A stretch of DNA of 37,405 nt, taken from a virus. Its lineage: Duplodnaviria; Caudoviricetes. Where the stretch lies: the IMG/VR virus record IMGVR_UViG_3300043442_000666, positions 1 to 37,405 of that record; one strand, written 5' to 3'. Below are positions 3,856 to 37,405 of the stretch, in pieces. Each line of letters begins with the position of its first letter. The stretch's first letter is position 1. The translations under genes and the position numbers were made by a program. The notes under the pieces are model-generated. The model saw nothing but the letters and a program-made list of their open reading frames with translations. It was not told the origin of the DNA and made no database searches.

Positions 3856-6800
3856 TTAGGGCGAGTTTACCACACTTCCTTGACTTTGTGCAAAGGAAGC
3901 CCCGAAATACGCAAGGACTTCATCGTAACTCATGCCTAATTGACGGGCTTGATATTGAAGTTCCTGCCTTGCGTAATAGGATAATTTGTCCCCGTTCTGG
4001 TAATAGTCTGCCATTTGCTCTACCAAAGGCTCTCCCAATGTCTGCGTCCAATACTCCATCGGTAGGACGTTGGGGGTGTTGGCAGCTTCCAGTAAGGCTT
4101 GCTGATAATCGCTTTGGGCGGTTGCGTCCTCTCGCCGTGAGGGTGCTTCGGGAAGATAGGCTTCCACGCTTTTCATGCGCTCGTCGATGGATTTAAGAAG
4201 CTGTTTCTTCTCTGCAAGATAAGCGGAAAAGCCAGGGTGTTGTGCCTCAAATGCTTTCCGTTCTTTAGTGTCAAGCAGATCGGAATATTCCAAGTCGAGA
4301 TTTCGCATGTCAGAGCCGTACTTTTGTTCGAGGTCGCGGTACATGATGTTCGTGAAGTAGCGTTCTGTTGTACTAAATCCGCCATAATACTCGTTCAATG
4401 TCGGCGTTGAAATTATGTAGTAGTCTTGCAAGATAAGCGCGTCACGGACAATGGGGTTATCGTCCAAGAAGTCCTCTTGATCTGAATAACTCAAATCGTA
4501 GTATTTTTCCAGTTTATCTTGAATATCCTCGCCGTAACGCTCATTCATTACATCTTTCATTTCCGCATACATCTTTCGCGCTTCCGCCCAAGATTGGCGG
4601 TTTGCATTGGATGGCATTTGATACATCTGTGCCATATCCTCGATACCTGCAATAAAACGAGCCTTGTCTTGTTCGGTCAGGTTCATTTTTGAGATGTCGC
4701 CTTTGGCGTTATAAAATTCCTCAATCCACTTTTGGTCAATATCTACCAAGCCTGTAATGTCAGTCATTTGTCCGGGTGGAATCCTGCCAAGTACATTGTA
4801 GGCATAGGCGGTTTCCATTTCTGCGCTGTTCTTGCGACCCAACAAAAGTCCATCCACGAACATGCCGTACTCTGGATTTTCCCTGAGTGCGTTCCATGCG
4901 TCCCTGTATTGGTCTGGGGTCATAATGGATTTTGAAGCCAACAGCGTTGAGTAATCTCCCCAAAACTTTTCAATGACCATATCTTCCTGAGTACGTGGTC
5001 TTGCGCCGACACCGATAAAGAAGGAACTGACATCCCCTTGAAAACGCTTCTGGGCTGAGTAGTTTACAGCGGCGTTCCAAATATCTCCATTCTTGGAACG
5101 TGCCGCTTCAATCATCTGTTCTTGGGTAATATCCCCGCGCTGTACCATCATGGCAAGAGCCGCCACGACACGGTTTCTTTCGTAGGGGTCGGCTCCACCC
5201 CAAAGGTCTTGGTTTGCAACTTGAACGAATGGGTCAATTTCTATTGCTTCCCCAAACAGAGTGGAACTTGCTGACTTCACCAACTGCGATTGTGGTAACA
5301 ATCGACCAAGCCAGCGTTCGCCTGCTTCCTGTTGTCCTGTGGTGTAGAGTTTTAATGCTAATGCCCAGTTCACCAAAGGCGAGAAAGAAGGACCCATTCT
5401 CCCCATATCACTAACCATGTTCGTAACCCAATCCACGCGCTTTTTCGGGTCGTTGAAGTCTGAGCCAGTTAATCCATAAACAGGGTTAATCATTGACTCA
5501 AGGTTGATATAGTATGGGTTGGACAAGTCAATCCCAAGTAAGTTGGTGACTACGGCATTTTGTCGGTAATACTCCGGCATATCTGCGTGTTCTTGTTGAA
5601 TATAGTCCTTGTAAGCTAGATAGATATTGGCATACTTTGGATTATCAACAACATTTTCCAGCATCTTTGCATACGAGCGGGTTGTCCAGTAATGGAACGA
5701 GTTTCCAAACAGATATGACAGAGCATGATCCATGTAAGTCTTGTCGTAGTCATGCAAAACAAAGTTTCTGGTTTCCACAGCCACACGCCCCGCCATTTCA
5801 CGAACAGGTTTCATACGTGTTTCAAATGCGTTACGGAAACTTCGCAGGGCATCAGTCATATCAACAGGGGTCGACTTTACCTTCGATCCCCATTCGTTTG
5901 TCACCGTGTCGCCCCACCGCTGTACGTCCGCCAAAAACTCGTCGCGGGTTTCCCACAGGATGCGTGCTTCACTTACAGTATCATCGAACGGCGGAACTCT
6001 GGTACGGCTCCAAATAGCTTTGTAGGCATCTTCAAGAGTCACCTGTTCGTAAGGAATGACCTTGCCAGTGTCCGCTGCTACCGCGTTGACAATGTGTTTT
6101 TTTCCGCCTTTCCATGTCTTGAATATTTCTTGGAAGTCACCAATGACATCCTTGATAAGAATAGGTGAGCCGTCAGAGGCTTTGGGTATTTCTTGAAAAT
6201 CGAACTGACGCAAGAATCTTCGCCACGACACAGCATCTTCAATGTCCTCGGATTCTTGGAACAACTTGGTCAATACGCGATAGGGATTGTCAGACCCTTT
6301 GTCTGCCATGACGATCTCATCAAATGACATCCCCATCTTGGTTGCCATTTCTTCAAGAATTTGCAAAGAGCCTGTGTACTTCTTATTGTTGCCATTTCTG
6401 TACACATCAGCAGATGTTTCAAAGAACGCGGTCCATAATCGTTTTCTAAAAGTTGGACGTTGCAACTTTGCAAGATTTTGACTTTGATAAATCTCACTAA
6501 GTTGGAACTTACGCCCCTTGTAATAGATGGGCTTCGTCCACATTGTTTTAAGCATGGCTGCATCAGCGTCTTTGGACGCATCTATCATCTTTATTATTTC
6601 GTCTCGTAATAGATTGATGGAACGATACTGCTCCACTGTAATAGATGCAGTTTGTTCAATTCGCGCTGTTGCTTCCTCAACGGCTGTATAGAGTTGAGGA
6701 TTTTCCAGCGCAATGCGGCGGGCTTTTGCAAGTGTTTCGGAAACAACCGTTGTCAACTGGTCTTGGGTGTTTTGCCAAGACTGGATCAACTCCGCCATTA

Positions 6801-9459
6801 AATTCTTGTCGCGGACATCCACTTTGCGGGTGTCTGCCAAATCCCCTGCAAACTCGTACAACTCCTCCGGCATTTTAGAAACTGTGGATGGCATCTTTTG
6901 AGCGGCTTCCGTTACCAACGCATCGTACCGAGACACGATGGCATCCAGCCCAGACTTGAACTCATCCACGCTTTCGGCGTTCTTTTGCAGGTCGTAGAAC
7001 TCGTCCAACATGCCGATTGACTTTAGATGGTTTTGCATATCAACGGACGGTTCCACCAACCGCCATGTTTCAACTTCGCCGTTTCCTGCTATCTTACGAA
7101 TAATGTCCAACGCTTCGTCAACATTACCCGCTGAACGTTTCAAGGCTGAGAACATCAGCCCTTTTTGGTTCTGCGGGAACATATTTAGTAAGTTGTCCCA
7201 TTCAGGCATCCCCTTCAAAACGGAGGGCAGTGCTTTTTTTAGTTCGTCATCCACGACTTTCAAAATGATGTTTGCGGCGGTAATTTGCTCTGAACGCTGC
7301 ATTGCAGGCAAAAAGCCAAACTTTGTTTTTGTCTGCAATGAATCCGCAATACCAAGAGATGCTTCGATTGGCGCAAATCCAAGTTTACGGATAAGAGCCT
7401 CATTCATATTGGCAAGAATGTTGTCAGAGTATTTCTTTACAGGGCTTCGCCCTAATGCTTCCAACGATGTAAGCACAGCGGTTTTGAGGTCTGTGGACAT
7501 TGCCAACAATAAGGATTGACCGTAGATGTTCCTCGCCCAAGAGCGTGGAACCCAATTCATAAACAGTTGCACCATTCCGCCTGTTGTCTTTTTGACAACT
7601 GCTTCGGATGGTCGGGTTAATTGATTGATGATACGGACAGGCTTTGGCAGGTCTTTTGCCATTTCTGCCAGCCGCTTGACCTTTGCCGAAGTGTCGCCCG
7701 CTTTTAGTTTGCTCTCCGCTTGCAACATTTCATCCACGGAAGGGATAAGATCACCTATGACGCTTTCAAGTTTATGATAAAGCAGACCGTATGTTTCTTG
7801 ATGGTTCGCGGATTTTTTGACGACATCCAAAAGATTGTCGTTATCCATACGGTGCATGATTTCACCCACCAACATGCCGACATCCGAGAATACAAAGTCA
7901 GACTTGGTAAGTAACTTCTTTGCTGCGTCAATCGTTGCGCTTCCGCCTTTGCGGAGGTTTGCCATGTCCTGCAAGGTTGCCAGTGTTTCATTCAGACCAT
8001 AGCGTGTCATCATGGATTTTAGAAAGTAGTCGGCATCGGCGGAGGCGCGGCGGACTTTACCATCCCTGTCCACACTGGCGAGATTCCACATCCAATCCTT
8101 TTGTTTCCATGAATCAAAGAACTTAGAAACTTTGCCGACGGCTTCATTGACCACCTTTGCCGCCTGTCTTTCGTCGTTCACGTTGCCTGAGTTGCGAAGC
8201 AGGGTGTCCAAATCAGGCATGACATTATTTACAAATCTGTCTGATGCTTTGGCTAGTCTAGCCTTACCAATGTTTGCGCCGATGAACTCACCGAACGTAG
8301 GGATTCGCACAATGGTTTGCCACGGGAGGGATACGGTCTTTCCAAAAACGCGCACAGTATCCGCGCTTAATCGGGCTGCGTCATCAAAGTAATTGATAGG
8401 CTTTACCAAAGACATTCCCAAATAGGTACTTGGTGAGCCTAAGATAGAGCCAAGAAGTTCTGTCCCCATCTTACCCATGTCCTGCGCTAAGAAACCTGGG
8501 TCTTTTCCTTCTGCTAGTGCCTTATCAAACTCGGCGCGTTTGGCTTCATCAAAGGCAAGGGTATAAGCCATTGCGGATGCTTTCTGATAATCCTGTATTC
8601 GTTCTTTTGTTTCCGCCCACGTTATCTTATTCTGCATCATTGCTTTTGTAACAGTGATGGCATCCTTGATGATGGCGTAGGGCGAGGATTGGTTTATCTT
8701 CAAGTACAGGTTGGTTGGCTCGTCTTTCTTGAACTGGTCGGCTACGGAATCCAAGCCCATCGAGGTAGTATGAATTTTCCGCATGGCTTCATCATCCAAG
8801 CTAAGTAATGCCAATCCACCCCATATCAGATTTTGCGTGGTATCCACCCCAAGACGAACGGCGCGGGACATGCCCGTTCCTGCGCTTTGTATAAATGCTT
8901 CGGTTCTTGTGTCGCCTTCGGCTTTGCTGGCTTCTTTGGTGATTTGCTTTTCAGTTGCAAGTCCGGCTGGTAATGCGGCGACATCTTCTGCGGTCAAGCC
9001 TGTGGCTTCTTCCGCCGATGTAAACGCCCCAAACCAGAACGAGCCGCGCTGGCTCCATTTTAGTTTTTCTTCAAGCGTCCTTGCCCATGCACCAATGCGG
9101 TCATCGTACGCGGCGTTTATTTCGCTTTGCGTGTCTTGGTCGAGTTGATTGATCTGCCACTTGAATTTTGTCGGGTCGGTCAGGTCTGCCCATGCCTTGC
9201 GTAGCCAACCTTTGAATCCATCCCCATAATAGGCAAGTCCTCCCGATGTCGTGTCATACGCCATGTAAGGCGGTGGCTTCGGGAGGTTTTCTATCTTTGG
9301 GGATACGGGAAGTTGTAACGGCTTTACGTCAGACTGCGGGGGAGAAATCGGCTGTTGTTTTTGCTGTTCCTCTTTTACCGCGTTGTATGCGTTTACTTCT
9401 GCCCGTTGCCTTGATTGAATGGCTTCGGGAGAATAGTAGCCTTTTGGTTTCTTTGCCAT
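3856..9459 (-). CDS. very large helical protein, probable internal virion/DNA-ejection protein
   Basis: 1867 aa, alpha-helical composition, inside the head operon; no enzyme motif recognised. Confidence 0.55.
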   Translation of the reverse strand: MAKKPKGYYSPEAIQSRQRAEVNAYNAVKEEQQKQQPISPPQSDVKPLQLPVSPKIENLPKPPPYMAYDTTSGGLAYYGDGFKGWLRKAWADLTDPTKFKWQINQLDQDTQSEINAAYDDRIGAWARTLEEKLKWSQRGSFWFGAFTSAEEATGLTAEDVAALPAGLATEKQITKEASKAEGDTRTEAFIQSAGTGMSRAVRLGVDTTQNLIWGGLALLSLDDEAMRKIHTTSMGLDSVADQFKKDEPTNLYLKINQSSPYAIIKDAITVTKAMMQNKITWAETKERIQDYQKASAMAYTLAFDEAKRAEFDKALAEGKDPGFLAQDMGKMGTELLGSILGSPSTYLGMSLVKPINYFDDAARLSADTVRVFGKTVSLPWQTIVRIPTFGEFIGANIGKARLAKASDRFVNNVMPDLDTLLRNSGNVNDERQAAKVVNEAVGKVSKFFDSWKQKDWMWNLASVDRDGKVRRASADADYFLKSMMTRYGLNETLATLQDMANLRKGGSATIDAAKKLLTKSDFVFSDVGMLVGEIMHRMDNDNLLDVVKKSANHQETYGLLYHKLESVIGDLIPSVDEMLQAESKLKAGDTSAKVKRLAEMAKDLPKPVRIINQLTRPSEAVVKKTTGGMVQLFMNWVPRSWARNIYGQSLLLAMSTDLKTAVLTSLEALGRSPVKKYSDNILANMNEALIRKLGFAPIEASLGIADSLQTKTKFGFLPAMQRSEQITAANIILKVVDDELKKALPSVLKGMPEWDNLLNMFPQNQKGLMFSALKRSAGNVDEALDIIRKIAGNGEVETWRLVEPSVDMQNHLKSIGMLDEFYDLQKNAESVDEFKSGLDAIVSRYDALVTEAAQKMPSTVSKMPEELYEFAGDLADTRKVDVRDKNLMAELIQSWQNTQDQLTTVVSETLAKARRIALENPQLYTAVEEATARIEQTASITVEQYRSINLLRDEIIKMIDASKDADAAMLKTMWTKPIYYKGRKFQLSEIYQSQNLAKLQRPTFRKRLWTAFFETSADVYRNGNNKKYTGSLQILEEMATKMGMSFDEIVMADKGSDNPYRVLTKLFQESEDIEDAVSWRRFLRQFDFQEIPKASDGSPILIKDVIGDFQEIFKTWKGGKKHIVNAVAADTGKVIPYEQVTLEDAYKAIWSRTRVPPFDDTVSEARILWETRDEFLADVQRWGDTVTNEWGSKVKSTPVDMTDALRSFRNAFETRMKPVREMAGRVAVETRNFVLHDYDKTYMDHALSYLFGNSFHYWTTRSYAKMLENVVDNPKYANIYLAYKDYIQQEHADMPEYYRQNAVVTNLLGIDLSNPYYINLESMINPVYGLTGSDFNDPKKRVDWVTNMVSDMGRMGPSFSPLVNWALALKLYTTGQQEAGERWLGRLLPQSQLVKSASSTLFGEAIEIDPFVQVANQDLWGGADPYERNRVVAALAMMVQRGDITQEQMIEAARSKNGDIWNAAVNYSAQKRFQGDVSSFFIGVGARPRTQEDMVIEKFWGDYSTLLASKSIMTPDQYRDAWNALRENPEYGMFVDGLLLGRKNSAEMETAYAYNVLGRIPPGQMTDITGLVDIDQKWIEEFYNAKGDISKMNLTEQDKARFIAGIEDMAQMYQMPSNANRQSWAEARKMYAEMKDVMNERYGEDIQDKLEKYYDLSYSDQEDFLDDNPIVRDALILQDYYIISTPTLNEYYGGFSTTERYFTNIMYRDLEQKYGSDMRNLDLEYSDLLDTKERKAFEAQHPGFSAYLAEKKQLLKSIDERMKSVEAYLPEAPSRREDATAQSDYQQALLEAANTPNVLPMEYWTQTLGEPLVEQMADYYQNGDKLSYYARQELQYQARQLGMSYDEVLAYFGASFAQSQGSVVNSP

Positions 9460-9460
9460 G

Positions 9461-10516
9461 TTATCCTGAACCTGTGTTCAAAATGGTTGAGTAGTAATCA
9501 CCTGTTCCCGTATAGGGAGTGGGGGCATAGGATACGATTTCAGTAGGCGAATAAACACTGCCACCCTCAGTATTCTTTTCCATTTGCTTTCTGCGTTGGT
9601 TGGCTTTCATTTGCCAAATCTGTTCGCGTGTCATCACATAAGGCGCAAATGGATCGGGCTTTCCCTGTGCCGCTGCTTGTGCCTGCGCCTGCGCTCGTGC
9701 GGCTGTTGGATTTTTTGCCTGCCAGTTCCAATAGTCCACCCATTGAGAATAATTCTCAGAAGTAATTTCATTGGATGGTGGCTTTTGCGTTGATGTTCCT
9801 TGTTGATTGGGAGCCATATAGGATGTCGCCGGATACGAAGATGCTCCCATTGCTGTAAATCCATTTGTCGGCGGTGTCTGGAATGGGGCTTGATTGAAAT
9901 ACACTCCACCTTGTAAGCCTGTTTGTACAGGGTTAACCGCCGCAGGATTCATACGTGTGGCTGGTGACAGCGTATTCATTCCACCCGCTCCCGTCTGCAC
10001 CCCTGCAAATCCGTTCTGTACAGGGACGAGCATGGGATTGACATTTCCACCCTTGCCCGGTGTGGACATCGTGGCATTACCACGTGATACCGCCACCCCT
10101 GAGTTTCCGCTGTTGTCATAGAACATACTGCCCGGCGTGTTGCGTCCCATCAGGACATCCGCCGCGCTTTGGAATACGTTCATAGTCGGCTGTTGGGTGA
10201 AGTTCATGGTGGTGTTGGCAGGCATGGACACGATCTGTCCATTCCCAAGTTTGACGCGGGTGTTGGTGTTCGCGGTGTAACTCGGTCCCGCTGGCAATGG
10301 CACAACATTATTACCCGCTACGTTCTGCGGGCGTAAGTTGGGATTCATGTAACCGGCGGGATAGGCGGGATTGTTCGCCGCAAATTTTCCAGCCTGTCCG
10401 TCTGCGGCGGTGGATTTGTAGCGCGTGCCGTTAGCCAGTTTGAAGGCTTGGGTTTTGAGGGGGGACGTTGACTTGTTGGCTTGTCTCAAGTCCTCGTCCA
10501 GTAATCGCTTTGCCAT
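9461..10516 (-). CDS. low-complexity N/P/Q/G/T-rich protein, probable internal virion protein
   Basis: 351 aa, GGAGG RBS, composition typical of disordered proteins, adjacent to the 1867-aa ORF. Confidence 0.5.
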   Translation of the reverse strand: MAKRLLDEDLRQANKSTSPLKTQAFKLANGTRYKSTAADGQAGKFAANNPAYPAGYMNPNLRPQNVAGNNVVPLPAGPSYTANTNTRVKLGNGQIVSMPANTTMNFTQQPTMNVFQSAADVLMGRNTPGSMFYDNSGNSGVAVSRGNATMSTPGKGGNVNPMLVPVQNGFAGVQTGAGGMNTLSPATRMNPAAVNPVQTGLQGGVYFNQAPFQTPPTNGFTAMGASSYPATSYMAPNQQGTSTQKPPSNEITSENYSQWVDYWNWQAKNPTAARAQAQAQAAAQGKPDPFAPYVMTREQIWQMKANQRRKQMEKNTEGGSVYSPTEIVSYAPTPYTGTGDYYSTILNTGSG

Positions 10517-14996: not shown

Positions 14997-15002
14997 GCCG
15001 CC

Positions 15003-15038
15003 ATTGTACCATGTTTTGCACAGGTATTTTGCACAGGT
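15003..15038 (-). promoter_or_regulatory. extended -10 promoter for the head operon with upstream tandem repeat
   Basis: TGgTACAAT ends 6 nt before ATG 14996; TTTTGCACAGGT occurs at 15014-15025 and 15027-15038. Confidence 0.5.
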
Positions 15039-15140
15039 TTTGTAGGCGAAATTAGTACTTAATTCCTATTCTACTTTCGACACTTTGTACACTATACTTA
15101 CAACATAGTAATCAAACAAACAATAAAAGGAGAAAATAAC

Positions 15141-15395
15141 ATGAAATTTACAGAGATGGACCTCGGTAAACTAACATCACTTATAAACGAAGTTATGGAT
15201 AAATTTTCAGACAAAATAGTGATCGAACGCCCATTGGCACATTCTGAATTAGCTTTCAAGTGGAATGTATTTCACGTCACAATGCAATATCTACAATACA
15301 GTAATCGGACGGAAGATTACAAATTTATGCGTGATTTATACAATACATACAATGACGACCACATCACCACAGCATTAAACAGAATAATCAAGTAA
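15141..15395 (+). CDS. hypothetical protein
   Basis: AAGGAG RBS; AT-rich; C-terminal NDDHITTAL. Confidence 0.75.
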   Translation: MKFTEMDLGKLTSLINEVMDKFSDKIVIERPLAHSELAFKWNVFHVTMQYLQYSNRTEDYKFMRDLYNTYNDDHITTALNRIIK

Positions 15396-15420
15396 ACATA
15401 TCATATCTTTGGAGGATGAA

Positions 15421-15666
15421 ATGTTCAAAACACAGGAAGAAGTACAAGCACGCAGCAAGCTGATCAAATGTGAGGCATTGGAAACCTCAAAGGGCATCAA
15501 ACTTGGTGACACTGTGACTCACAAAGGGGTTGACGGGGAATTCCCCCCCACATCCGGCATTGTAACAAAAATTGAGTACTGGTTAGATTACGACCTTTCC
15601 TATTATCGCATCAAAATTGACACAGGGAATGGATATATCGAATCAGCAGAGGCACAATACCAATAA
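15421..15666 (+). CDS. hypothetical small beta-barrel (SH3-like) protein
   Basis: GGAGG RBS before ATG 15421; KLGDTV...GIVTKI pattern. Confidence 0.65.
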   Translation: MFKTQEEVQARSKLIKCEALETSKGIKLGDTVTHKGVDGEFPPTSGIVTKIEYWLDYDLSYYRIKIDTGNGYIESAEAQYQ

Positions 15667-15680
15667 GGCAGGTTATACCC

Positions 15681-15869
15681 GTGAGACATAACATGACAAT
15701 CACCCTCGGCTCCCTACGCATCACCCTATTCAAGTTTGAGCGCCTCGCCCGCTTCATCCCTCAAATTGACCAGACACAGCGGACACAGCAGGCACAGCAG
15801 ATCATCACGTCAGACTATTTTCAGACCATAAAACAGCAGGCACAGGCTTATAAAGCCGGAAAGGTATAA
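15681..15869 (+). CDS. hypothetical protein
   Basis: Tightly packed ORF in the plus-strand operon. Confidence 0.55.
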   Translation: MRHNMTITLGSLRITLFKFERLARFIPQIDQTQRTQQAQQIITSDYFQTIKQQAQAYKAGKV

Positions 15870-15870
15870 C

Positions 15871-16125
15871 ATGTCAAAATCAAACGAATTACAAAAGTAT
15901 TTTGAAGCTGGTTGGAACCTGAATTTCAGCGAAAACCCGCCTTATGCTTCATCTCCTATTGGATTAGCTTTTGCTGCTGGAGTTTGGGCTAGAAAACACT
16001 CATTACCATGCGGAGAAATTAAATCCAGCCGTGGTTATAAAATGATCGTAAATCGAGATTATATTTTGGATTTCAAAGACAGCGACTGCAATCCAAATGT
16101 AACAAGAAAACAGACAGTAGTATAA
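15871..16125 (+). CDS. hypothetical protein
   Basis: GAAAGG RBS; tightly packed. Confidence 0.65.
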   Translation: MSKSNELQKYFEAGWNLNFSENPPYASSPIGLAFAAGVWARKHSLPCGEIKSSRGYKMIVNRDYILDFKDSDCNPNVTRKQTVV

Positions 16126-16210
16126 CCCCTTGCGCTCCCCCTCTGCCCATCTGGTAAACAGGTGGGCAGGATGGACGGCACAAACCCAACAACCAAAAGG
16201 AGAAAATATC

Positions 16211-17008
16211 ATGTTGACAGTAGAAGAATACAAAGCCAAACGTTTAGCCAAGATCGAACGCCTCCGAGCAGCCGCAGAACGCGCACGCGCTGAGGGTAAA
16301 ACATCCATACAACAGGGTAACAGCATGTTTAAGGTTATCCCGTTCGGGCAGCCTATTTTGGTAGGACACCACTCAGAACGCCGAGATCGTAACTATCGCG
16401 ACCGCGCATGGAATAAACTCGGCAAAGGTTTTAAACTTATTGAGAAAGCCGAACGTCTAGAATCCCGCGCCGCCACCGTCGAATCCAATGACATGATTTA
16501 CACCGAGGACCCGCAAGCCGTTGAGAAATTAGAGTCAAAGCTTGATTTACTTCTCAAAGAACAAGCCGAAATGAAGCGGATTAATGCCGCACTTCGCAAA
16601 GGTGCAGACTTTGACACGCTCGAAATGTCACCAGAACACCGCGCCGAATTGTTGAGTGTTGACAGACACCAAAACTATTACCAACCCCGCAAGAAAGGCT
16701 TTCCGCCCTACATGCTAACCAGTATCAACGCCAAGATTAAGACCGCCAAACAACGCACCCAGATCGTAGAAGCAAAGCAAGCAACACCAGACAAAGACGA
16801 AGAACATGACGGCATCCGTGTAGAATGGCGGGCAAGTGAAAACAGAATCCGCGTGTTTTACCCCGGACGGGTTGACCTTGTCACTTTCAAGGCTCTAAAA
16901 ACACATGGTTTTCGCGTTTTACGCTCTGAGGGTGAAGGTGCTTTCTCAGCCTATTACAACCAGAACGCCGCGTATTTCGTGAAAACCTACATAAGAAAGC
17001 AGGCATAA
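16211..17008 (+). CDS. DUF3560-domain protein
   Basis: Signature IPFGQPILVGHHSERRDR; C-terminal ENRIRVFYPG...LKTHGFR; AAAGGAG RBS before ATG 16211. Confidence 0.85.
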   Translation: MLTVEEYKAKRLAKIERLRAAAERARAEGKTSIQQGNSMFKVIPFGQPILVGHHSERRDRNYRDRAWNKLGKGFKLIEKAERLESRAATVESNDMIYTEDPQAVEKLESKLDLLLKEQAEMKRINAALRKGADFDTLEMSPEHRAELLSVDRHQNYYQPRKKGFPPYMLTSINAKIKTAKQRTQIVEAKQATPDKDEEHDGIRVEWRASENRIRVFYPGRVDLVTFKALKTHGFRVLRSEGEGAFSAYYNQNAAYFVKTYIRKQA

Positions 17009-17009
17009 A

Positions 17010-17420
17010 ATGATCCCGAAATACATTACCCCGCAAATAGTACACCACCAGCCCGAAAACATTCCAGCGGACCTCCACCCGTGGCAGGACGAAAACAGCG
17101 GTATTTCAGCCCTTACCCAAGCCGCAGCCGATATAGCCAAAGGTAAAAAGGTAAACTTTGCCATTGGACACCGCTTAGAAGACGGTAGAACAGTCGTAGC
17201 AATTGATGAGATTGTGACCTTTGCAATGGGAGAAGGCGACAACCCTAAAGACGGTTATCAACCATTAACCCCGCGATATTGCGGAGAAGACAACGACCCG
17301 AACGGAGCAGGAAGTCACGCGCTTATCCCGTCTTGGTACGACTATTGTACCGACCCCGCGCATATTGCCGTAGCTCTCGCCCGCGCTTTCTCTGGAAAAT
17401 TGTACTTTCGAGTACGCTAA
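17010..17420 (+). CDS. hypothetical protein
   Basis: 136-aa ORF directly after the DUF3560 gene. Confidence 0.65.
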   Translation: MIPKYITPQIVHHQPENIPADLHPWQDENSGISALTQAAADIAKGKKVNFAIGHRLEDGRTVVAIDEIVTFAMGEGDNPKDGYQPLTPRYCGEDNDPNGAGSHALIPSWYDYCTDPAHIAVALARAFSGKLYFRVR

Positions 17421-17470
17421 CCCCTACCGCCCGCCCGTGGGCTGATAATACGCGGGCAGAAAGGTACAAC

Positions 17471-17809
17471 ATGAAACACACACCCGCACCGTGGAGACTT
17501 GACCCATATGGGGACGGAATGGCTCCGCATAGAATATACGCCGATCATGGATTGGTTTCCCATAAAGGGAAAAAATACCCTATGTACTCTATCATCTGTG
17601 ATGCAGATGGTTCTATGCCTGAAGATGTAACAATCGCCAACGCCCGCCTGATCGCCGCCGCGCCGGAACTGCTGGAAGCGTTAGAAACCATTTTACGACT
17701 GGCTGAAGCTGGAGTAATTCATCGCAATGAGACAGGCAAGCCGCAGTGGAGCTTGACCGACGAATTACAGACAATTGCCCGCGCCGCCATACAGAAAGCC
17801 GAGGGATAA
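17471..17809 (+). CDS. conserved phage hypothetical protein (HTPxPW...ANARLIAAAPELLEAL family)
   Basis: Characteristic N- and C-terminal motifs; GAAAGG RBS before ATG 17471. Confidence 0.8.
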   Translation: MKHTPAPWRLDPYGDGMAPHRIYADHGLVSHKGKKYPMYSIICDADGSMPEDVTIANARLIAAAPELLEALETILRLAEAGVIHRNETGKPQWSLTDELQTIARAAIQKAEG

Positions 17810-18940: not shown

Positions 18941-19651
18941 TCACACCACCACCCCCGCCACTCTCCCCACCGAGGCGACAAACTCATCCCATGAATACCG
19001 CTCGATCCTGTTAGGGAACGGATTGTAGATGTCCACCGTCCCGCCGAAGCGTTCGCGGAAGATGTCCGTTACCACCACCCAATGACGGATGCCGGAGGCT
19101 TGCAGCTTGCCCGTGTACCTATTGATGCTCACTCCGATAATGACTTTGCCGGGTATCTGGTAGAGTTTCCCATTTGTCAGACGACTTAGACGTAGGGGAT
19201 GGGACACCACGTTATAGCCGTCCAGGATTGTTTTCAAATCGTCCGCGCTGGTGAGCCAGTTCCGCCCGTCAATGTAATCGTAGTGTTTGGGATTGGACCG
19301 CTCCCACGTCTGGAACACGTTCAAGGCGGGCTTATTCAACACAAAGGCGATACACAGCATCCCGCAGGCATTGACGATTTTCTCTCCGTTGACGATGATG
19401 TACTGCTCTGCGTCGTTAGGGTTGGGCGTTTGGATGCCGTCCAGATCAACACAGTCCTTTGGTAACATCTCGTGGTACTCGTCCAGATAGTCCGCGTCCA
19501 CCCAGCCGCTTACGCCGTTGTAGGTGACTTCCACCCTACTCCCAACGGCCACGCCAGTATCCACCACAGCGTGCAGAGGCAAGTCAAAATGCTTGACTGT
19601 GCCGTCTGCTGTTTTGTATAGGGGGCGTTGCCAGTTTAGGAAAGATTTCAT
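18941..19651 (-). CDS. probable endolysin: SH3b-like domain plus C39-like papain-fold peptidase
   Basis: VEVTYNGVSGWV (SH3b); catalytic-type NACG, HWVVV and IYNP motifs. Confidence 0.7.
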   Translation of the reverse strand: MKSFLNWQRPLYKTADGTVKHFDLPLHAVVDTGVAVGSRVEVTYNGVSGWVDADYLDEYHEMLPKDCVDLDGIQTPNPNDAEQYIIVNGEKIVNACGMLCIAFVLNKPALNVFQTWERSNPKHYDYIDGRNWLTSADDLKTILDGYNVVSHPLRLSRLTNGKLYQIPGKVIIGVSINRYTGKLQASGIRHWVVVTDIFRERFGGTVDIYNPFPNRIERYSWDEFVASVGRVAGVVV

Positions 19652-20592
19652 ATTAGTTCTAATCTAGTCCTTGTCAGTTCTAAATATTTTGGATTTATGT
19701 CAATTCCTACATACCGCCTTTCGTGCTTTAGGGCTACTTTACCTGTGGTGCCAGCACCATTAAACGGGTCAAGCACTACGTCACCCTCACGACTACCAGC
19801 CAAAATACAAGGCTCTATCAAATCGGGCGGGAATGTTGCGAAGTGTGCGCCTTTGTACGGCTTGGTGGTGACTGTCCAAACGTCACGGCGATTGCGCCCG
19901 TTTTTATTTGGTCGCATATCTCGCTCTCTGTTCAAAGATTTTGGATTTCCTTGCTGTTTGTCTTTCGGTGACTTTACGAGTCTCGTAAAGTCACCACCCC
20001 ATCTATCTATGGGAGATGTGTATGGTTCTAAAACTGCCTCAGCGTCATAAAAATACTTAGGCGACTTAGCCAGCAGGTAAATCATTTCATGTGCTTTTGT
20101 TGGTCTATCCTTCACGCTTTCAGGCATGGGGTTTGGCTTGTGCCACACAATTTCACTTCTGAGATACCAGCCGTCTGCCTGCAAAGCAATGGCGACGCGG
20201 GCGGGAATCATGAGTAAGTCTTTTGGCTTGTATCCGTCTATTCGGGAAAGTTTGCTTTTATGCTCTTCAGTTGTTTGGTAATTTGTTCCCCTATTACTAA
20301 GTTGCTTTTCAGACGGTAATTTAGTTCCAGCTCCTTGATTGCTTCCCGCGTAACTATCACCTAAATTTAGCCATAACGTACCATCGGGCTTTAGAACGCG
20401 CCGAACTTCCCTAAAAACTTCGACAAGGCGGGCAATGTAAGCGTCAGGAGTTTCTTCTTGCCCAATTTGCCCTTTGTGTCCATAATCGCGCAATCCGTAG
20501 TAAGGCGGTGACGTGACGCAAGTTTGAACGGTATCAGCATCCATATCACGTAAAACTTCCAAGCAATCGCCTAAATGCAATGTCACTGTCAT
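19648..20592 (-). CDS. DNA N4-cytosine/N6-adenine methyltransferase (beta class)
   Basis: GDC, TSPPY, HFATFP, VLDPFNGAGTT; start at ATG 20592, coupled to the upstream stop. Confidence 0.93.
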   Translation of the reverse strand: MTVTLHLGDCLEVLRDMDADTVQTCVTSPPYYGLRDYGHKGQIGQEETPDAYIARLVEVFREVRRVLKPDGTLWLNLGDSYAGSNQGAGTKLPSEKQLSNRGTNYQTTEEHKSKLSRIDGYKPKDLLMIPARVAIALQADGWYLRSEIVWHKPNPMPESVKDRPTKAHEMIYLLAKSPKYFYDAEAVLEPYTSPIDRWGGDFTRLVKSPKDKQQGNPKSLNRERDMRPNKNGRNRRDVWTVTTKPYKGAHFATFPPDLIEPCILAGSREGDVVLDPFNGAGTTGKVALKHERRYVGIDINPKYLELTRTRLELI

Positions 20593-20723
20593 CGGGTGTA
20601 GCACCTTCCGCCTTTCATAAATCGCCCGTCGCTTCTACCCATCTCATAGCGTTTCCCCTCCCAGAACAGCAGGAGGGCAATGGGTAACAGGGCGAGGAAC
20701 ACAACAAAGCGTAAGCGTTTCAT
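20589..20723 (-). CDS. small single-pass membrane protein (44 aa)
   Basis: Manual translation MKRLRFVVFLALLPIALLLFWEGKRY...; AAAGGA RBS; ATGA overlap with the methylase gene. Confidence 0.6.
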   Translation of the reverse strand: MKRLRFVVFLALLPIALLLFWEGKRYEMGRSDGRFMKGGRCYTR

Positions 20724-29175: not shown

Positions 29176-29567
29176 TTATTCCTCTGGATAAACAAGTCTA
29201 TAAGCTGCTTAGCTGTTGGTATTTTTTGCGGCACAGCCCATCTGCCTTTGTATCTATACTTTTCAACACAAGAGTTTGCAAAATCAATTTCCTTATCAAC
29301 TGGTGTGTCGTGACTTATCACAATTAGCAAGGTCGGCTTTACCTTTTGCATATCGTCACAAAGTCTTTCAAGTGCCAGCTTTTGTCCGTAAGGCATTTCA
29401 GCACCGATCTTTTTTGCTTCTATAAAAACGTAGCACTCGTTTCTAAACTCAATAAGTCCGTCTAAATCTGTTGGTGTGATGTTTCCGTATCTAAGTCCTG
29501 TAAAGTCTCTACCTTGTTTTGCTCTCTGCTTGAAAGTTGTTGCGCCTCTTACAATTTCGCTATCCAT
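29172..29567 (-). CDS. PD-(D/E)xK nuclease-fold protein
   Basis: PTDLDG...FIEAK...GQ motif. Confidence 0.65.
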   Translation of the reverse strand: MDSEIVRGATTFKQRAKQGRDFTGLRYGNITPTDLDGLIEFRNECYVFIEAKKIGAEMPYGQKLALERLCDDMQKVKPTLLIVISHDTPVDKEIDFANSCVEKYRYKGRWAVPQKIPTAKQLIDLFIQRNK

Positions 29568-30478
29568 CCAAATCCCTCATATTGTTTGACAAACGCACTA
29601 ACATTTTTTCCTGAGTAAGTAAGTGCCTGTCCTTGCAACGGTGCGCCGGGATTTCCTTTCGGATCGAGAAACTTTACCCGTCCGGTAGGAAATAAAACCG
29701 CAGACGACACAGAGACAAGGTCCGCAAACCACTGTGTTTCCGTTGCGTTGTTCACTAAAACAATTCCTTCGGTAATGTCGCCACTAGAAACATGCTCGAC
29801 AAACTTAGAAATAAACTGCCTGACTAATTCGGCTGAATAAGGGGGGTTCATCCAAACTTTTCCAGCCCAAAACTTAGAAAGTCCATCATCTTTTGCGGTG
29901 TAAATCTTTGATGCGCCAACTACCTTATTGGCAATTTCAGATGAAGCGGGGTCTAAATCAATCCTTCCCATCACCGCCTTAGCGCAAGCAATGTACTCAA
30001 TCGGTGTGTACCATTCGCTCTCGCCTGTGTTCTGTGCGACGTGTACTTTTGCAGACTTCAAAAGCCCTGATGTAGTAAGTTCAAGTCCGGCATCTTTGAC
30101 TTGCGCTATATGCTGTTCAAATGCTTTTTCTGGAATTTGCGCGGCTTGTTGCCAGCGGTGGGCGGTAGTGGTGGGGATGTCCTGTTCTTCTAACACTTCG
30201 CGGTATTCGGATGGCTGTGTTCCATCTTGGAATTTAGCCTTGTATTGATTTCCTCTATCGTGGTTACTTCGTTCCAACTGCCTAAGCAAATCCCCTGCCT
30301 TACGCTCTGCGCGGATTTTCACTTCGGCGGCGTGATTCTGTGCATCCAATCCCAGCTTCGCAGCGCGGGCATAAGTTCGTGCGGCTTCGGCAATATCCAT
30401 AATCTCCTTGACTTCATCAAGGCTTTTTGCCTCCGCTAACATCTGTGTGGCTTTATCTAATTTTGCAAGAGAGTTCAT
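29549..30478 (-). CDS. phage DNA N6-adenine methyltransferase (phage Dam family) with helical N-terminal domain
   Basis: EWYTP, DLDPAS, DGL, WMNPPY, TETQWF and GRVKF motifs. Confidence 0.9.
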   Translation of the reverse strand: MNSLAKLDKATQMLAEAKSLDEVKEIMDIAEAARTYARAAKLGLDAQNHAAEVKIRAERKAGDLLRQLERSNHDRGNQYKAKFQDGTQPSEYREVLEEQDIPTTTAHRWQQAAQIPEKAFEQHIAQVKDAGLELTTSGLLKSAKVHVAQNTGESEWYTPIEYIACAKAVMGRIDLDPASSEIANKVVGASKIYTAKDDGLSKFWAGKVWMNPPYSAELVRQFISKFVEHVSSGDITEGIVLVNNATETQWFADLVSVSSAVLFPTGRVKFLDPKGNPGAPLQGQALTYSGKNVSAFVKQYEGFGWIAKL

Positions 30479-33863: not shown

Positions 33864-33867
33864 TAGG

Positions 33868-33903
33868 AAATCCCCTAGTCGAGAGGCTGGGGGATTTTAT
33901 TTT
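33868..33903 (+). terminator. intrinsic terminator after the integrase
   Basis: AAATCCCCTAGTC-GAGA-GGCTGGGGGATTT followed by a T-run. Confidence 0.8.
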
Positions 33904-33933: not shown

Positions 33934-33962
33934 TTGACATGAGTAAACAACTGGTGTATTAT
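33934..33962 (+). promoter_or_regulatory. sigma70-type early promoter for the recombination/cassette operon
   Basis: TTGACA, 17-bp spacer, TATTAT; near-identical to the cro promoter. Confidence 0.85.
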
Positions 33963-34644: not shown

Positions 34645-35160
34645 ATGTTTGACCCGAAAAGCAAAATCTCCAATCTGCGTGGAAAAGAATACCTTGAAGT
34701 CAAATGGCGTTTAGTCTGGTTTCGTGACGACCGAAAAGACGGCACGATCTTGACCGAAGTTATCAGCACTACGCCTCTTATGGTAAAGGCTACCGTCAAG
34801 GATGGTGACAAAGTCTTGGCGACTGGCTACGGCTCTGCACAGGTAAAACAGGGTGCGGTATGGGCTGGACGTGAGATCGAAAAGGCGGAGACTGCCGCCA
34901 TTGGACGCGCTCTTGCACACGCTGGCTACGGTACTCAGTTCACCGATGAGGACGAAGGCGAACACTTAGCCGACACCCCCGTTGAGCCACACAAAGAAAC
35001 GGTGTTTGAAAAGTACACCAAACTTCTCAACGAAGCCAAAGGGCTTGGTATTGATGGACTTGAAGATTATCAAGTCACCGAAAACATGACGGACTCAGAA
35101 ATCATCTCGCTTGGTAAGGAACTCCGCGCCAAAGTCGAAGCAAAGAAGGCAGGTAAATAA
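34645..35160 (+). CDS. Rad52/Sak-like single-strand annealing protein
   Basis: GKEYLEVKWR...ATG...EKAETAAIGRAL..AGYG; adjacent to ssb. Confidence 0.7.
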   Translation: MFDPKSKISNLRGKEYLEVKWRLVWFRDDRKDGTILTEVISTTPLMVKATVKDGDKVLATGYGSAQVKQGAVWAGREIEKAETAAIGRALAHAGYGTQFTDEDEGEHLADTPVEPHKETVFEKYTKLLNEAKGLGIDGLEDYQVTENMTDSEIISLGKELRAKVEAKKAGK

Positions 35161-35549
35161 TGTCTTGGTATTCCTACGATAACACTGTGATTGTTGGCAA
35201 AGTTGGCAAAGACGCAGAAATGAAGTTCGCCGGGAATGGTACAGCCGTCACCAGTTTCAGCCTCGCGGTAGATCGTTCATTCAAGAAGGACGGCGAAACG
35301 GTAAAGCGCACCATCTGGTATCGTGTGCAGGTGTTTGGTAAGCTTGCCGAGATCGTGAAGGACGTGAAAAAGGGTGACACCATCCTTGCAGAAGGAACGC
35401 TCGAAGCCGACTGGACGACTGGCGCACCCCGTATCTGGAATAAACAGGATGGTACTGCCGCCGCCTCATTCGATCTGACTGCGAAGGAAATCAAATTCCT
35501 TTCGCAAAAGTCGAAACAAGAACAAGTCGAGGACGAAAATCCGTTCTAA
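35160..35549 (+). CDS. ssb: single-stranded DNA-binding protein
   Basis: VGKVGKDAEMK, FSLAVDR, WYRVQVFGKLAE, KKGD motifs; acidic DENPF tail. Confidence 0.95.
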   Translation: MSWYSYDNTVIVGKVGKDAEMKFAGNGTAVTSFSLAVDRSFKKDGETVKRTIWYRVQVFGKLAEIVKDVKKGDTILAEGTLEADWTTGAPRIWNKQDGTAAASFDLTAKEIKFLSQKSKQEQVEDENPF

Positions 35550-35593
35550 CTCCCTCGGTGCGTAGGTGTCACAGCCTACGCACCAGCATCCCT

Positions 35594-35857
35594 ATGGCAT
35601 CCAACACCTTCACCCGCACAGACGTAAACGGAAACTCCCGAACGTACTCCCGCAAAGGGACGCAGGGACGTACTAAGTCTAACTTACCCCTGAAAACATC
35701 AAGTGTCCTAATCCACTTGACAGAAAAGGACAAGATCGAATTTTCATCGTTTTGCAAGAGACTAGGTATGTCAGAGTCTAGTGCTGGTGAGTTGGCGTTG
35801 TTTACACTGATGCGCGATATAGAATTATCCGTATCAGATAATTGTTTCAAGCAATAG
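35594..35857 (+). CDS. ribbon-helix-helix (CopG-like) DNA-binding protein
   Basis: VLIHLT strand followed by helix-GMSES-helix; start uncertain. Confidence 0.55.
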   Translation: MASNTFTRTDVNGNSRTYSRKGTQGRTKSNLPLKTSSVLIHLTEKDKIEFSSFCKRLGMSESSAGELALFTLMRDIELSVSDNCFKQ

Positions 35858-35879
35858 TTAGTTGCTTCGTGAGGTAAAA

Positions 35880-36113
35880 ATGTCCAGCACCAGAACAAAG
35901 AAACTTCAACAAGAATGCGTGCGACTCTCGTCATTGCAAATGAAATCAACGGGCGAACGATATTTGGAACTTGACCGCCAGTGGTCTCGCGTTGCAGTGT
36001 TACTCAATAAATCAAGGTTGCGTGATTTCATAAACGCAACTAACAAGGCGTGCAGCCGACAAGAGCCAGCGGGCGCGTCTAAAAGTCAAGTTGCGTGTGG
36101 CTCTTGCGGCTAA
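35880..36113 (+). CDS. cassette 1 hypothetical protein (reads through attC1)
   Basis: GAGGT RBS before ATG 35880; TAA lies within L' of the attC. Confidence 0.7.
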   Translation: MSSTRTKKLQQECVRLSSLQMKSTGERYLELDRQWSRVAVLLNKSRLRDFINATNKACSRQEPAGASKSQVACGSCG

Positions 36114-36128
36114 CGCAATCCGTTGGGC
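36038..36128 (+). repeat. attC site 1 (91 bp)
   Basis: AACTAAC...GTG[C]AGCCG[A]CAAGAGCCA / TGGCTCTTGCGGCTAAC...GTTGGGC. Confidence 0.88.
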
Positions 36129-36150
36129 GGACTAAGCCCAGGAGGAAGTT

Positions 36151-36369
36151 GTGCAAGTAAAAGTTGATATTCAATTACGGTGTAACTCTTGCGACACTGT
36201 TTTGACCACATCAGTAGTAACACTCGCTGATAAAGATGGTTTATATGCCTATGTTGACCCGTGCCAAAAGTGTGCCGCCCAACAACAGCATGCACCTGAC
36301 GTGCTACGCAGTGGGCATTGTGAGCATGTCCCTGATGGGCAGTATTGCCCGTATTGTAAAGAAGCGTAG
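36151..36369 (+). CDS. cassette 2 small zinc-ribbon protein
   Basis: AGGAGG RBS, GTG start, CNSC...PCQKC motifs. Confidence 0.7.
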   Translation: MQVKVDIQLRCNSCDTVLTTSVVTLADKDGLYAYVDPCQKCAAQQQHAPDVLRSGHCEHVPDGQYCPYCKEA

Positions 36370-36401
36370 TTACCGCGCGCAGGTAACGCAATCCGTTGGG
36401 C
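36277..36401 (+). repeat. attC site 2 (125 bp)
   Basis: GCCCAAC...ATG[C]ACCTG[A]CGTGC / GCGCGCAGGTAAC...GTTGGGC. Confidence 0.85.
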
Positions 36402-36434
36402 GGCTTCGCCCTAAACAGAAAGGTTAGGCAAATA

Positions 36435-36659
36435 ATGAATTTGCGTATCAGGTGTGCCTCGCACAATCAGGTTCTAAAAATATTTTCGTCTTATGATAGC
36501 AATGGCGAAACCATCATTGATGTTACGCCGTGTCCAGAGTGCGCCGCCCAACAAAACATGCACTTGACCATTGGGAGTCTGCGCTATTTACAAGAGACTC
36601 TTACGCCTCGGCAGTTATCGGCTCTCAAAGATTTATTTACCCCTCCCAATGGCAAGTAA
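36435..36659 (+). CDS. cassette 3 small zinc-ribbon protein
   Basis: ATG 36435, CASH...PCPEC motifs; TAA lies within L'. Confidence 0.65.
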   Translation: MNLRIRCASHNQVLKIFSSYDSNGETIIDVTPCPECAAQQNMHLTIGSLRYLQETLTPRQLSALKDLFTPPNGK

Positions 36660-36674
36660 TGCCAGCCGTTAGAT
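36546..36674 (+). repeat. attC site 3 (129 bp)
   Basis: GCCCAAC...ATG[C]ACTTG[A]CCATTGGGAG / CTCCCAATGGCAAGTAAT...GTTAGAT. Confidence 0.9.
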
Positions 36675-36691
36675 TGCTTCGTGAGGTGAAA

Positions 36692-36898
36692 ATGATTTGT
36701 GAAAAATGTTGGGCTGATGCTTACCGCCGTAGTTATGGCACAGGTAAATCGCAGTATGAATGTTATTTGGAGTTGTTAGAGGAGCGTAAAGATAATCCCT
36801 GCCCGACCGAAGCGCAATCTAACACAGCGTCCACCCGACTTGAAACGGGCGCGGCAAACGCTGACAGTCAATCTAACCCCGCCGTTTCAAGCGGGTAA
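36692..36898 (+). CDS. cassette 4 small Cys-containing protein
   Basis: GAGGTG RBS before ATG 36692 (MICEKCWADAY...); TAA lies within L'. Confidence 0.7.
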   Translation: MICEKCWADAYRRSYGTGKSQYECYLELLEERKDNPCPTEAQSNTASTRLETGAANADSQSNPAVSSG

Positions 36899-36913
36899 CG
36901 CAAACCGTTAGAC
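36817..36913 (+). repeat. attC site 4 (97 bp)
   Basis: ATCTAAC...GTC[C]ACCCG[A]CTTGAAACGG / CCGTTTCAAGCGGGTAAC...GTTAGAC. Confidence 0.9.
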
Positions 36914-36930
36914 CCCTTCGTGAGAATAGC

Positions 36931-37405
36931 ATGGAACTCGATAAAATAATCACAGGTGATAGCGCAGTAGTCTTGCAATCCTTTCCGCCCGATTGCATAG
37001 ACCTTACCGTCACATCCCCGCCTTACGATAATCTCCGAACCTATAACGGCTTTACTTTCGATTTTGAAACTATCGCCCGTCAGTTATTCAGGGTCACAAA
37101 GGCGGGCGGGGTTGTTGTGTGGGTAGTGGGAGACCAAACGAAAAACGGAAATGAAACGCTTACCAGTTTCAAGCAAGCAATTTATTTTCAGTCCGTTGGC
37201 TTCAATGTTGAAACGATGATTTACGAAAAGGCGCAAGCCTGTTTTGGAAGTAATCAGTTTTATTTGCAAGCCTTTGAATATATGTTTGTGTTCACGAAAG
37301 GAAAACCAAAAACAGCAAACTTCTTACGAGACAGAAAGAATAAGCGTTCAGGTGTTGAATCAATGGGCAAGCAAGGTCTACGCCCTGATGGTACTAAGGC
37401 AGAGC
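36931..37405 (+). CDS. cassette 5: DNA N4/N6 methyltransferase (beta class), truncated by window end
   Basis: Manual translation MELDKIITGDS...IDLTVTSPPYDNLRTY...LFRVTKAGGVVVWVVGD...FEYMFVF. Confidence 0.9.
   Translation, partial: MELDKIITGDSAVVLQSFPPDCIDLTVTSPPYDNLRTYNGFTFDFETIARQLFRVTKAGGVVVWVVGDQTKNGNETLTSFKQAIYFQSVGFNVETMIYEKAQACFGSNQFYLQAFEYMFVFTKGKPKTANFLRDRKNKRSGVESMGKQGLRPDGTKAE

Follow-up and report, generated by a model that had tools for sequence, protein, structure and literature searches.

The element described here is an array of integron-type gene cassettes (35857–37405) in the virus record IMGVR_UViG_3300043442_000666 of IMG/VR, which was analyzed over its whole length of 37,405 bases (hereafter, the window; linear, ~84% complete). 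In integrons, the integrase IntI recombines the folded bottom strands of attC sites with each other and with the attI site. Judging from the sequence, the array is likely an integrase-less integron platform, consisting of an attI-like site and at least five attC cassettes, which lies in the early operon of a temperate phage likely infecting Anaerolineales and is probably rearranged in trans by a host chromosomal IntI.

Structure of the attC Sites

When the whole window was scanned structurally on both strands, exactly four attC sites emerged, at the coordinates claimed in a preliminary description of this DNA: attC 1 (36038–36128), attC 2 (36277–36401), attC 3 (36546–36674), and attC 4 (36817–36913), the bottom strand (−) being the recombinogenic one in each. 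When 34 attC sites taken from bacterial genomes were made into a covariance model, it found all four on the bottom strand (59.1, 52.3, 93, and 60.8 bits, respectively), and the top unrelated match in the window scored 7.7 bits; the model sites were retrieved by a pattern of the same attC type, so the scores demonstrate kinship and the model is not fully independent. The site nearest to the host chromosomal consensus was attC 3. No second array was found in the window by the scan or the model. Among 500 dinucleotide shuffles of the region 35857–37405, 467 contained no site, 33 contained one, and none contained two or more, while 30 shuffles of the whole window gave none (12), one (14), two (3), or four sites (1), that is, 0–2 scattered sites in 29 of 30. 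Since whole-window shuffles also yielded sites, the structural score was not decisive alone, and clustering, polarity, and register were considered decisive.

Inverted R''/R' boxes with conserved AAC and GTT were present in all four sites. The L''/L' arms were paired, and the bottom strand showed extrahelical bases and a central spacer left unpaired; the spacers were 5 and 7 nucleotides (nt) long, the latter being the L'–R' spacer. The box consensus proposed earlier (RYYYAAC/GTTRRRY) holds in general, with a one-base deviation in two boxes, R'' of site 1 and R' of cassette 1; likewise, the extrahelical bases described earlier exist on the bottom strand, but the first of them is a 1 × 2 internal loop, and the "unpaired C" is clear just in site 4. 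In agreement with the preliminary description, R'' of sites 1–4 was complementary to the 5′ end of its own cassette over 9, 9, 10, and 10 nt and to the downstream R' over 3, 10, 3, and 6 nt, the latter match being poorer in three of the four sites. The same tendency was found at 155 junctions in relatives, where R'' fitted its own 5′ end better in 111 cases, equally in 27, and worse in 17.

The fold z-scores were −2.34 and −5.16 for attC 1 and attC 4, respectively, −1.11 (weak) for attC 3, and −0.76 for attC 2, in which another, non-recombinogenic fold was favored. Refolding as excised circles raised the pairing probability of the R boxes from 0.03 to 0.98 in site 1 and from 0.12 to 1.0 in site 3. 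These data support the interpretation that the four are attC sites and that they belong to an integron cassette array within the early operon of a phage, and their recombination by IntI is predicted.

The attI-like Docking Site

At the start of the array, an attI-like site absent from the preliminary description was identified on the + strand (35845–35863), with an L-like box at 35845–35851, a 5-nt spacer, and the crossover G/TT at 35857. The junctions of integrase-less arrays, the window included, had YAA at positions −9 to −7 and A at −1 before the GTT in 10 of 10 cases, and insertion at a bare GWT (attG) was rejected on account of this conserved upstream motif. The 12 nt preceding the first GTT were conserved across 19 integrase-less arrays, and the motif was kept in phages whose upstream genes are unrelated.

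Two matrices were constructed, from 16 host attI sites and from 10 attI sites of phages encoding IntI. The attI-like site of the window scored 5.5 on the host matrix, a moderate value, and 2.5 on the phage-IntI matrix. All nine distinct integrase-less junctions scored higher on the host matrix than on the phage-IntI one, as did eight of nine junctions found later, one of which had a 12-mer identical to a host site (for these nine, the absence of intI refers to 1.3 kb, the whole record having been checked for four). The phage-IntI attI sites reached only −0.8 to 3.1 on the host matrix. The presence of host-type attI in integrase-less phages thus supports use of the host IntI, and the simplest reading of this sequence class is that such phages would keep a host-type attI and use the host enzyme.

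Cassettes of the Array

The array units have the same direction and G/TT borders, each with one promoterless open reading frame (ORF) together with its attC, and sequences resembling ribosome-binding sites precede the ORF starts. All cassettes are on the + strand. Cassette 1 (35857–36121) has an ORF of 77 amino acids (aa; 35880–36113) that stops at the TAA of L'; cassette 2 (36122–36394) has a 72-aa ORF (36151–36369) encoding three CxxC pairs and one of the CxxV type, the last ones being attC-encoded; in cassette 3 (36395–36667), a 74-aa ORF (36435–36659) stops at L', as does the 68-aa ORF of cassette 4 (36668–36906; ORF 36692–36898, from the ATG at 36692). All four genes run through R'' into their own attC. 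No Pfam, PHROG, or PADLOC family could be assigned to cassettes 1–4. The earlier view of the cargo as Zn-finger proteins had the CxxC motifs as its sole basis, and cassette 2 scored below 0.9 in the atlas, with no family.

Cassette 5 (36907–37405), cut by the contig end, encodes an orphan N6/N4 DNA methyltransferase (PF01555; PADLOC orphan methyltransferase, E-value = 2 × 10−52). Of the suggestion that the cargo is directed against host defense, the methyltransferase fits, whereas cassettes 1–4 lack an assignable family. Cassette 5 was 95.9% identical over 515 nt to an 866-bp cassette of the viral record G029, which ends in an attC with the R'' predicted for cassette 5 (...GTCTAAC), and cassette 5 is also related (78% over 334 nt) to the cassette in first position of a phage that encodes IntI. 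In the GenBank set of isolated phages, matches were to the methylase of the window alone. Among the homologues of cassette 3, three share its front and have differing tails, and seven share its attC-encoded tail and have unrelated fronts, with the switch at R''.

Variation of the Array within One Sample

Two runs (X1 and X2) of one freshwater sample contained 98–99% of the sequence words of the region, and this sample may be the source of the window. The comparison relied on assembled contigs rather than reads, with 20 records left out. In X2, the backbone contig (35.7×) ended five bases inside the first cassette, a 52-nt link from attI to cassette 1 had a depth of 23.7×, and a contig with cassettes 1 and 2 (40.3×) started exactly at G 35857; from these depths, we infer a different first cassette in about one-third of the molecules. 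Downstream, one path (29.4×) led from attC 2 to cassette 3 and then to foreign sequence from 36670, and in another (11.7×), cassette 3 was replaced by 248 other letters from 36397, followed by cassette 4 and an exit at 36909. The depths of the two paths add up to approximately that of the contig with cassettes 1 and 2, and the exits 36397, 36670, and 36909 are each the last T of a GTT. In both runs, a loose end at 35854 joined the start of cassette 1 to other upstream sequence, which scored 13.0 on the host attI matrix, and in X1, cassette 4 was followed by cassette 5 in the order of the window with zero differences. It is exactly at the G/TT crossovers that contigs of this sample, the probable source, fork into alternative arrays. 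Two further loose ends, at 36377 and 36410, might derive from attC repeats of host chromosomes and were not used as evidence; the first resembles the host consensus by eye. Relatives of the backbone were present in runs X3–X5 with little of the array, the missing cover not being counted as evidence.

A chimeric contig near 35857 or host sequence flanking a prophage end had been named as a possible source of the array. The depth was, on the contrary, continuous with the backbone (16.1× and 14.9×), and a complete phage genome (G032) had the same layout.

Distribution of Related Arrays and the Probable Host

An 18-nt pattern of the right arm matched 80 stretches of viral contigs, and 69 loci remained after 11 overlapping ones were removed; 50 of these held arrays of 2–9 sites of this attC type. 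The 7-nt spacer was present in 178 of 203 viral sites, although the search pattern favors it. The 212 cassettes, including the partial fifth one of the window, formed 203 families, only nine of which were common to several records, mostly at differing positions. Cassette order thus differs both between phages and between contigs of one sample, as expected in the preliminary description for a shuffled array. The lengths of viral attC sites cluster near 90–97, 105–111, and 123–131 nt, those of host sites being mostly 129–131 nt.

A scan of GTDB genomes with a two-arm pattern, covering 15 of 64 parts, showed that 65 of the 72 loci listed belonged to Chloroflexota, mostly Anaerolineales; three were named otherwise (contigs of at most 3.2 kb), and four had no taxon. 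An IntI above the TIGR02249 cut-off was encoded in 83 of 251 Anaerolineales genomes. Since the attC type is that of Anaerolineales and IntI occurs in the order, the phage likely infects Anaerolineales (Chloroflexota), as far as site types indicate. A search for the host with the DNA of the window gave methylase and attC pieces only, with no close match. A Chloroflexota contig (L134:2603–14537) carries a DnaC-like loader, a broken same-direction intI, small cassettes, a methyltransferase, FtsK, and two attC sites; it may be an integrated phage-like element or an element resembling integrative and conjugative elements, with a phage-type layout, and as such a thin direct link to the host.

Integron Integrases in Relatives of the Phage

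The statement that no integron integrase is in view was borne out: neither an intI match in any frame nor a tyrosine recombinase was found within the ~84% complete record. Among the 50 viral records with these arrays, five encoded an IntI above the TIGR02249 cut-off (385–405 bits, cut-off 265 bits), and several more had diverged or partial copies. The enzymes of these relatives have the invariant residues R134, K159, H265, R268, H291, and Y300, which we take to be catalytic. In IntI-bearing relatives, intI belongs to a phage operon, has the orientation of the first cassette, and lies directly 5′ of it; in 17 loci the attI was located at the 3′ end of the phage intI, 0–25 nt from the stop codon. 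Among the 80 IntI loci in viral contigs, 27 had a same-direction downstream array, 25 were divergent, and 28 had no site in view, while host intI loci were divergent from the array in 12 cases, same-direction in one, and without attC in view in 30. It should be noted that ~25 viral contigs (L285–L343) contain IntI of other clades with divergent attC sites and may represent further phage integron lineages or host flanks.

Same-direction IntI sequences formed two phage-only groups (clades A and B, 21 and 7 rows) with no host row inside (Shimodaira–Hasegawa-like approximate likelihood ratio test, SH-aLRT, 99 and 100, respectively; IQ-TREE). These clades were defined after the FastTree result had been viewed, and the IQ-TREE analysis included 66 of 105 rows, every second host and other viral row and two long-branch rows being omitted. 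The attachment of clade A differed between the trees: it was placed beside host enzymes by FastTree and among other viral-contig IntIs by IQ-TREE. One locus classed as same-direction (L310) grouped elsewhere and was excluded from the cassette set.

Six of seven records with direct terminal repeats had arrays and no IntI above the cut-off. The complete 38-kb phage G032 (L381:15297–15393 and L382:6632–11759) has ~13 attC sites in one array and no IntI; its gene order (annealing-type gene, ssb, small gene, attI, array) matches that of the window, and it has an additional lone attC elsewhere, in the opposite direction. Long-branch, truncated, or remnant intI genes head the arrays of L091, L092, L093, and L094, which suggests that the phage integrase decays repeatedly.

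Comparison of Phage and Host Cassettes

The sets compared comprised 205 phage cassettes from 74 loci and 145 host cassettes from 48 loci, with a median length of 395 and 819 bp, respectively. The longest ORF extended past R'' in 149 of 204 phage cassettes and in 5 of 145 host cassettes, and it stopped at the TAA of L' in 94 of 204 and 3 of 145, respectively; in 140 of 145 host cassettes, the gene ended no later than R''. However, since the host attC has one open frame in any case (129 of 145), read-through into attC does not have to reflect selection. Matches to host cassettes were found for only 12 of 202 phage ORF bodies, all via two host ORFs, one of them a confirmed methyltransferase. Among 110 sampled phage cassette ORFs (of 200), 20 had a Pfam match, 12 of which were DNA-modification enzymes, versus 22 matches with one DNA-modification enzyme among 60 sampled host cassette ORFs (of 145). 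Phage cassettes constitute a separate pool; they are small and methylase-rich, and their genes read into attC. Cassettes of the loci L041, L065, and L080 encode a Mom-family protein, an RNA ligase, an RlaP nucleotidyltransferase, and a SpoU methylase, products that may counter host nucleases.

Proposed Mechanism and Alternative Explanations

The action of IntI on folded attC bottom strands, in attC × attC or attC × attI recombination, has been summarized (PMC9892861). In the phage, the host IntI would bind the bottom strand of attC, folded while phage replication leaves it single-stranded, attC × attC recombination would excise cassettes as circles, and these would be inserted at attI or another attC. 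Having no promoter of their own, the cassettes would be expressed from the upstream early promoter, and where genes read on through attC and stop in L', translation would cover the mRNA nearly up to the next ribosome-binding site; such translational read-through may reduce polarity. The payoff would be a fast turnover of early accessory genes, chiefly DNA-modification enzymes acting against host restriction. In one test, translation extended over the 3′ untranslated region doubled downstream expression, and deletion of attC mostly had little effect (PMC11511950, available part).

Several findings weigh against this reading. The evidence consists of DNA sequence, in which no recombination, circle, or transcript has been observed, and the same-sample records are assembled contigs from a single sample that is only a possible source. 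None of the contigs extends over 31 letters to the left and to the right of the junction at 35857 or of that at 36668, and the 11.7× path, with three nucleotide differences in attC 2 and two further on, may represent a sister lineage rather than a fresh event. Both attI matrices are small, the attI sites of hosts differ among themselves, with several scoring below 3 on their own matrix, and 4 of 734 GTT sites on the + strand outscore the attI of the window on the host matrix. The recombinogenic fold of attC 2 is not its minimum-energy structure, the incompleteness of the record leaves room for intI elsewhere in the genome, and in the part of PMC11511950 available, attC sites are minor determinants of downstream expression, which weakens the read-through argument. 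As for the host, no spacer-like match to the phage genes was found in 401 genomes of the host class, and in these genomes the serine integrase had only 32–33% matches, in two of them.

The proposal that a host IntI operates the array draws support from the host-like attI, but it is an indirect one, and IntI-bearing related phages are another possible source of the enzyme. The array could be worked in trans by a phage IntI of clade A or B from a co-resident prophage or a co-infecting phage; alternatively, the part of this genome missing from the assembly could hold the intI responsible. The five of 50 array records with IntI, the 27 of 80 viral IntI loci with same-direction downstream arrays, the kinship of cassette 5 with the first cassette of an IntI-bearing phage, which implies a shared pool, and the incompleteness of the record are in line with this. 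It is nevertheless considered unlikely, since the attI of the window belongs to the class of integrase-less phages and hosts, not to that found beside phage intI, and the slot directly before attI, where relatives carry intI, is occupied here by another gene. That the array is a relic, built by IntI and now altered only by homologous recombination or slippage between short attC arms and by exchange among related phages, agrees with the few substitutions in the alternative path, the weak folding of attC 2 and attC 3, the ssb and probable annealing genes adjoining the array, and the decayed or remnant intI among relatives. This explanation appears quite improbable, as the shared sequence stops at GTT and the breakpoints coincide with it, even at attI, where there is no attC arm available for pairing; moreover, the attI motif is conserved despite unrelated upstream genes, and 203 families among 212 cassettes point to high turnover.

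The insertion of cassettes at chance attG (GWT) sites, or the joining of host chromosomal integron DNA by misassembly or at a prophage end, was regarded as very improbable. According to the available part of a preprint (bioRxiv 2022.09.11.507474), IntI inserts cassettes at many GWT sites; in addition, the attC type is that of the host, and the array lies at the contig end. Against this stand the 12 conserved nucleotides before the first GTT, the phage cassettes, which are half the size of host ones and read into attC, the continuous depth, and the layout of the complete genome G032.

Genome Context of the Array

That the virus is a temperate tailed phage follows from the genes of the record: those for the major capsid protein, large terminase, primase-helicase, repressor, and large serine recombinase. 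The serine recombinase gene is followed by a terminator-like hairpin (33867–33898), a promoter match starting at 33934, several small genes, ssb, the 87-aa gene that ends at 35857, and then the array. The promoter-like match (33934–33962, + strand) was the top scorer (11/12) and likely drives the early operon into the array, although four promoter-like sites were counted versus 3.7 expected by chance. A search for a cassette promoter (Pc) at the array yielded a weak 9/12 match at 35801–35828, the 11/12 match lying 1.9 kb upstream.

The gene at 34645–35160 (+) encodes a 171-aa protein matching only PHROGs of unknown function; its position before ssb (35160–35549, +; PF00436, E-value = 1 × 10−20) suggests that it is likely a single-strand annealing protein. 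None of its five viral relatives had an array, so the platform is not tied to this gene. The 87-aa gene (35594–35857, +) occupies the slot where relatives carry intI, and the last base of its stop codon is the crossover G. Its product is possibly of the ribbon–helix–helix type (its feature score is 0.93 against a cluster in which 18% of the members are RHH_1, which gives no more than a lead); it had no relative among viral contigs and a single distant homologue, and its origin as an intI remnant was rejected on a sequence check. Between ssb and this gene there is a GC-rich inverted repeat without a T-tract (35552–35585). An Rfam search gave nothing relevant. Outside the array, two DNA methyltransferases and one S-adenosylmethionine-dependent methyltransferase without attC sites are encoded (19648–20604, 29549–30478, and 427–966, respectively), and a + strand island (16130–17809) with a DUF3560 protein and two further ORFs lies within the − strand late region, adjoining an AT-rich stretch (15001–16000).

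Comparison with Known Systems and Biological Meaning

[quoted passage not shown] In that study, IntI1 recombined five of six tested phage attC sites, and one Shewanella prophage had an integrase-less array with its own attI. The array of the window resembles those CALINs in its clustered attC sites without an integrase and in its methyltransferase cargo. However, the latter are scattered, mostly have 2–4 sites, and were read as captured host pieces or illegitimate insertions, and the available tables name no Chloroflexota host, whereas the platform described here is lineage-wide, lies in phage operons, and combines a conserved host-like attI with IntI clades confined to phages, a cassette pool of its own, and variants of cassette order within one sample. 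According to the available part of PMC11389934, CALINs are held to be mobilized in trans.

The window contains clustered attC sites with no intI nearby, which corresponds to the definition of a CALIN (at least two such sites); of the features of a complete integron, an intI beside the array is absent, and an attI before the first cassette is present by sequence class. With an array and an attI-like site but no intI, the element is thus a CALIN with attI rather than a complete integron. The movement of cassettes as units is indicated by the families shared at differing positions and by the G/TT branches in one sample.

Integrons in Chloroflexi are mentioned in the part of Cury et al. 2016 (PMC4889954) that was available. 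The sedentary chromosomal integrons of Anaerolineales have the same attC arms, 7-nt L'–R' spacer, and attI motif as the phage, but their intI faces away from the array, and their attC sites are mostly 129–131 nt long (~90–130 nt in phages). Same-direction integrases are known in bacteria from the available parts of PMC4889954 and PMC13323075; as in the inverted-integrase integrons of Treponema and others described in the former, intI runs along the cassette direction in the IntI-bearing phage relatives, which differ in being phage-borne and in having attI at the 3′ end of intI, the phage of the window having no intI. A complete integron was found at 4680–10101 of Virus Rctr41k (GenBank KX853513.1, L466), with an intI annotated as xerD and the first cassette 2 nt past its stop codon; no integron feature is annotated in this stretch. 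It has six attC sites of this type and, like the window, small cassettes and methyltransferases, but, unlike the window, it has a same-direction intI. As a "partial genome", it would fall outside the 2023 screen.

No report on integrons of Chloroflexota phages or on a phage attI copying that of the host was found in the literature, nor was any phage lineage with a maintained platform, two enzyme–site pairings, its own pool of cassettes with coding attC, and same-sample haplotypes; subscription papers, bioRxiv supplements, and the Dryad file and figures of PMC9892861 were outside this search. In the available parts of two preprints, integron cassettes encode anti-phage defenses.

A broader picture, offered tentatively and more doubtful than not, is that Anaerolineales phages run a parallel integron economy, in which cassettes would be built from phage genes by attC fusion at R'', with attC supplying the C-terminus, and traded either via copies of the host attI that hijack the host IntI or via a domesticated phage IntI, the arrays being reshuffled at present within single populations. 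A phage lineage appears to turn integron machinery, known as a bacterial tool, to its own use, whether or not it encodes an integrase itself, and to fill it with DNA-modification genes. In this light, what were rare phage CALINs in 2023 become a maintained platform with a testable pairing of host IntI with host-like attI and of phage IntI with its own attI. How cassettes originate is a question on which both the separate pool and the reassortment of gene fronts with attC-encoded tails have a bearing, and a parallel phage integron economy, if true, would provide a natural setting in which to study the making of cassettes.

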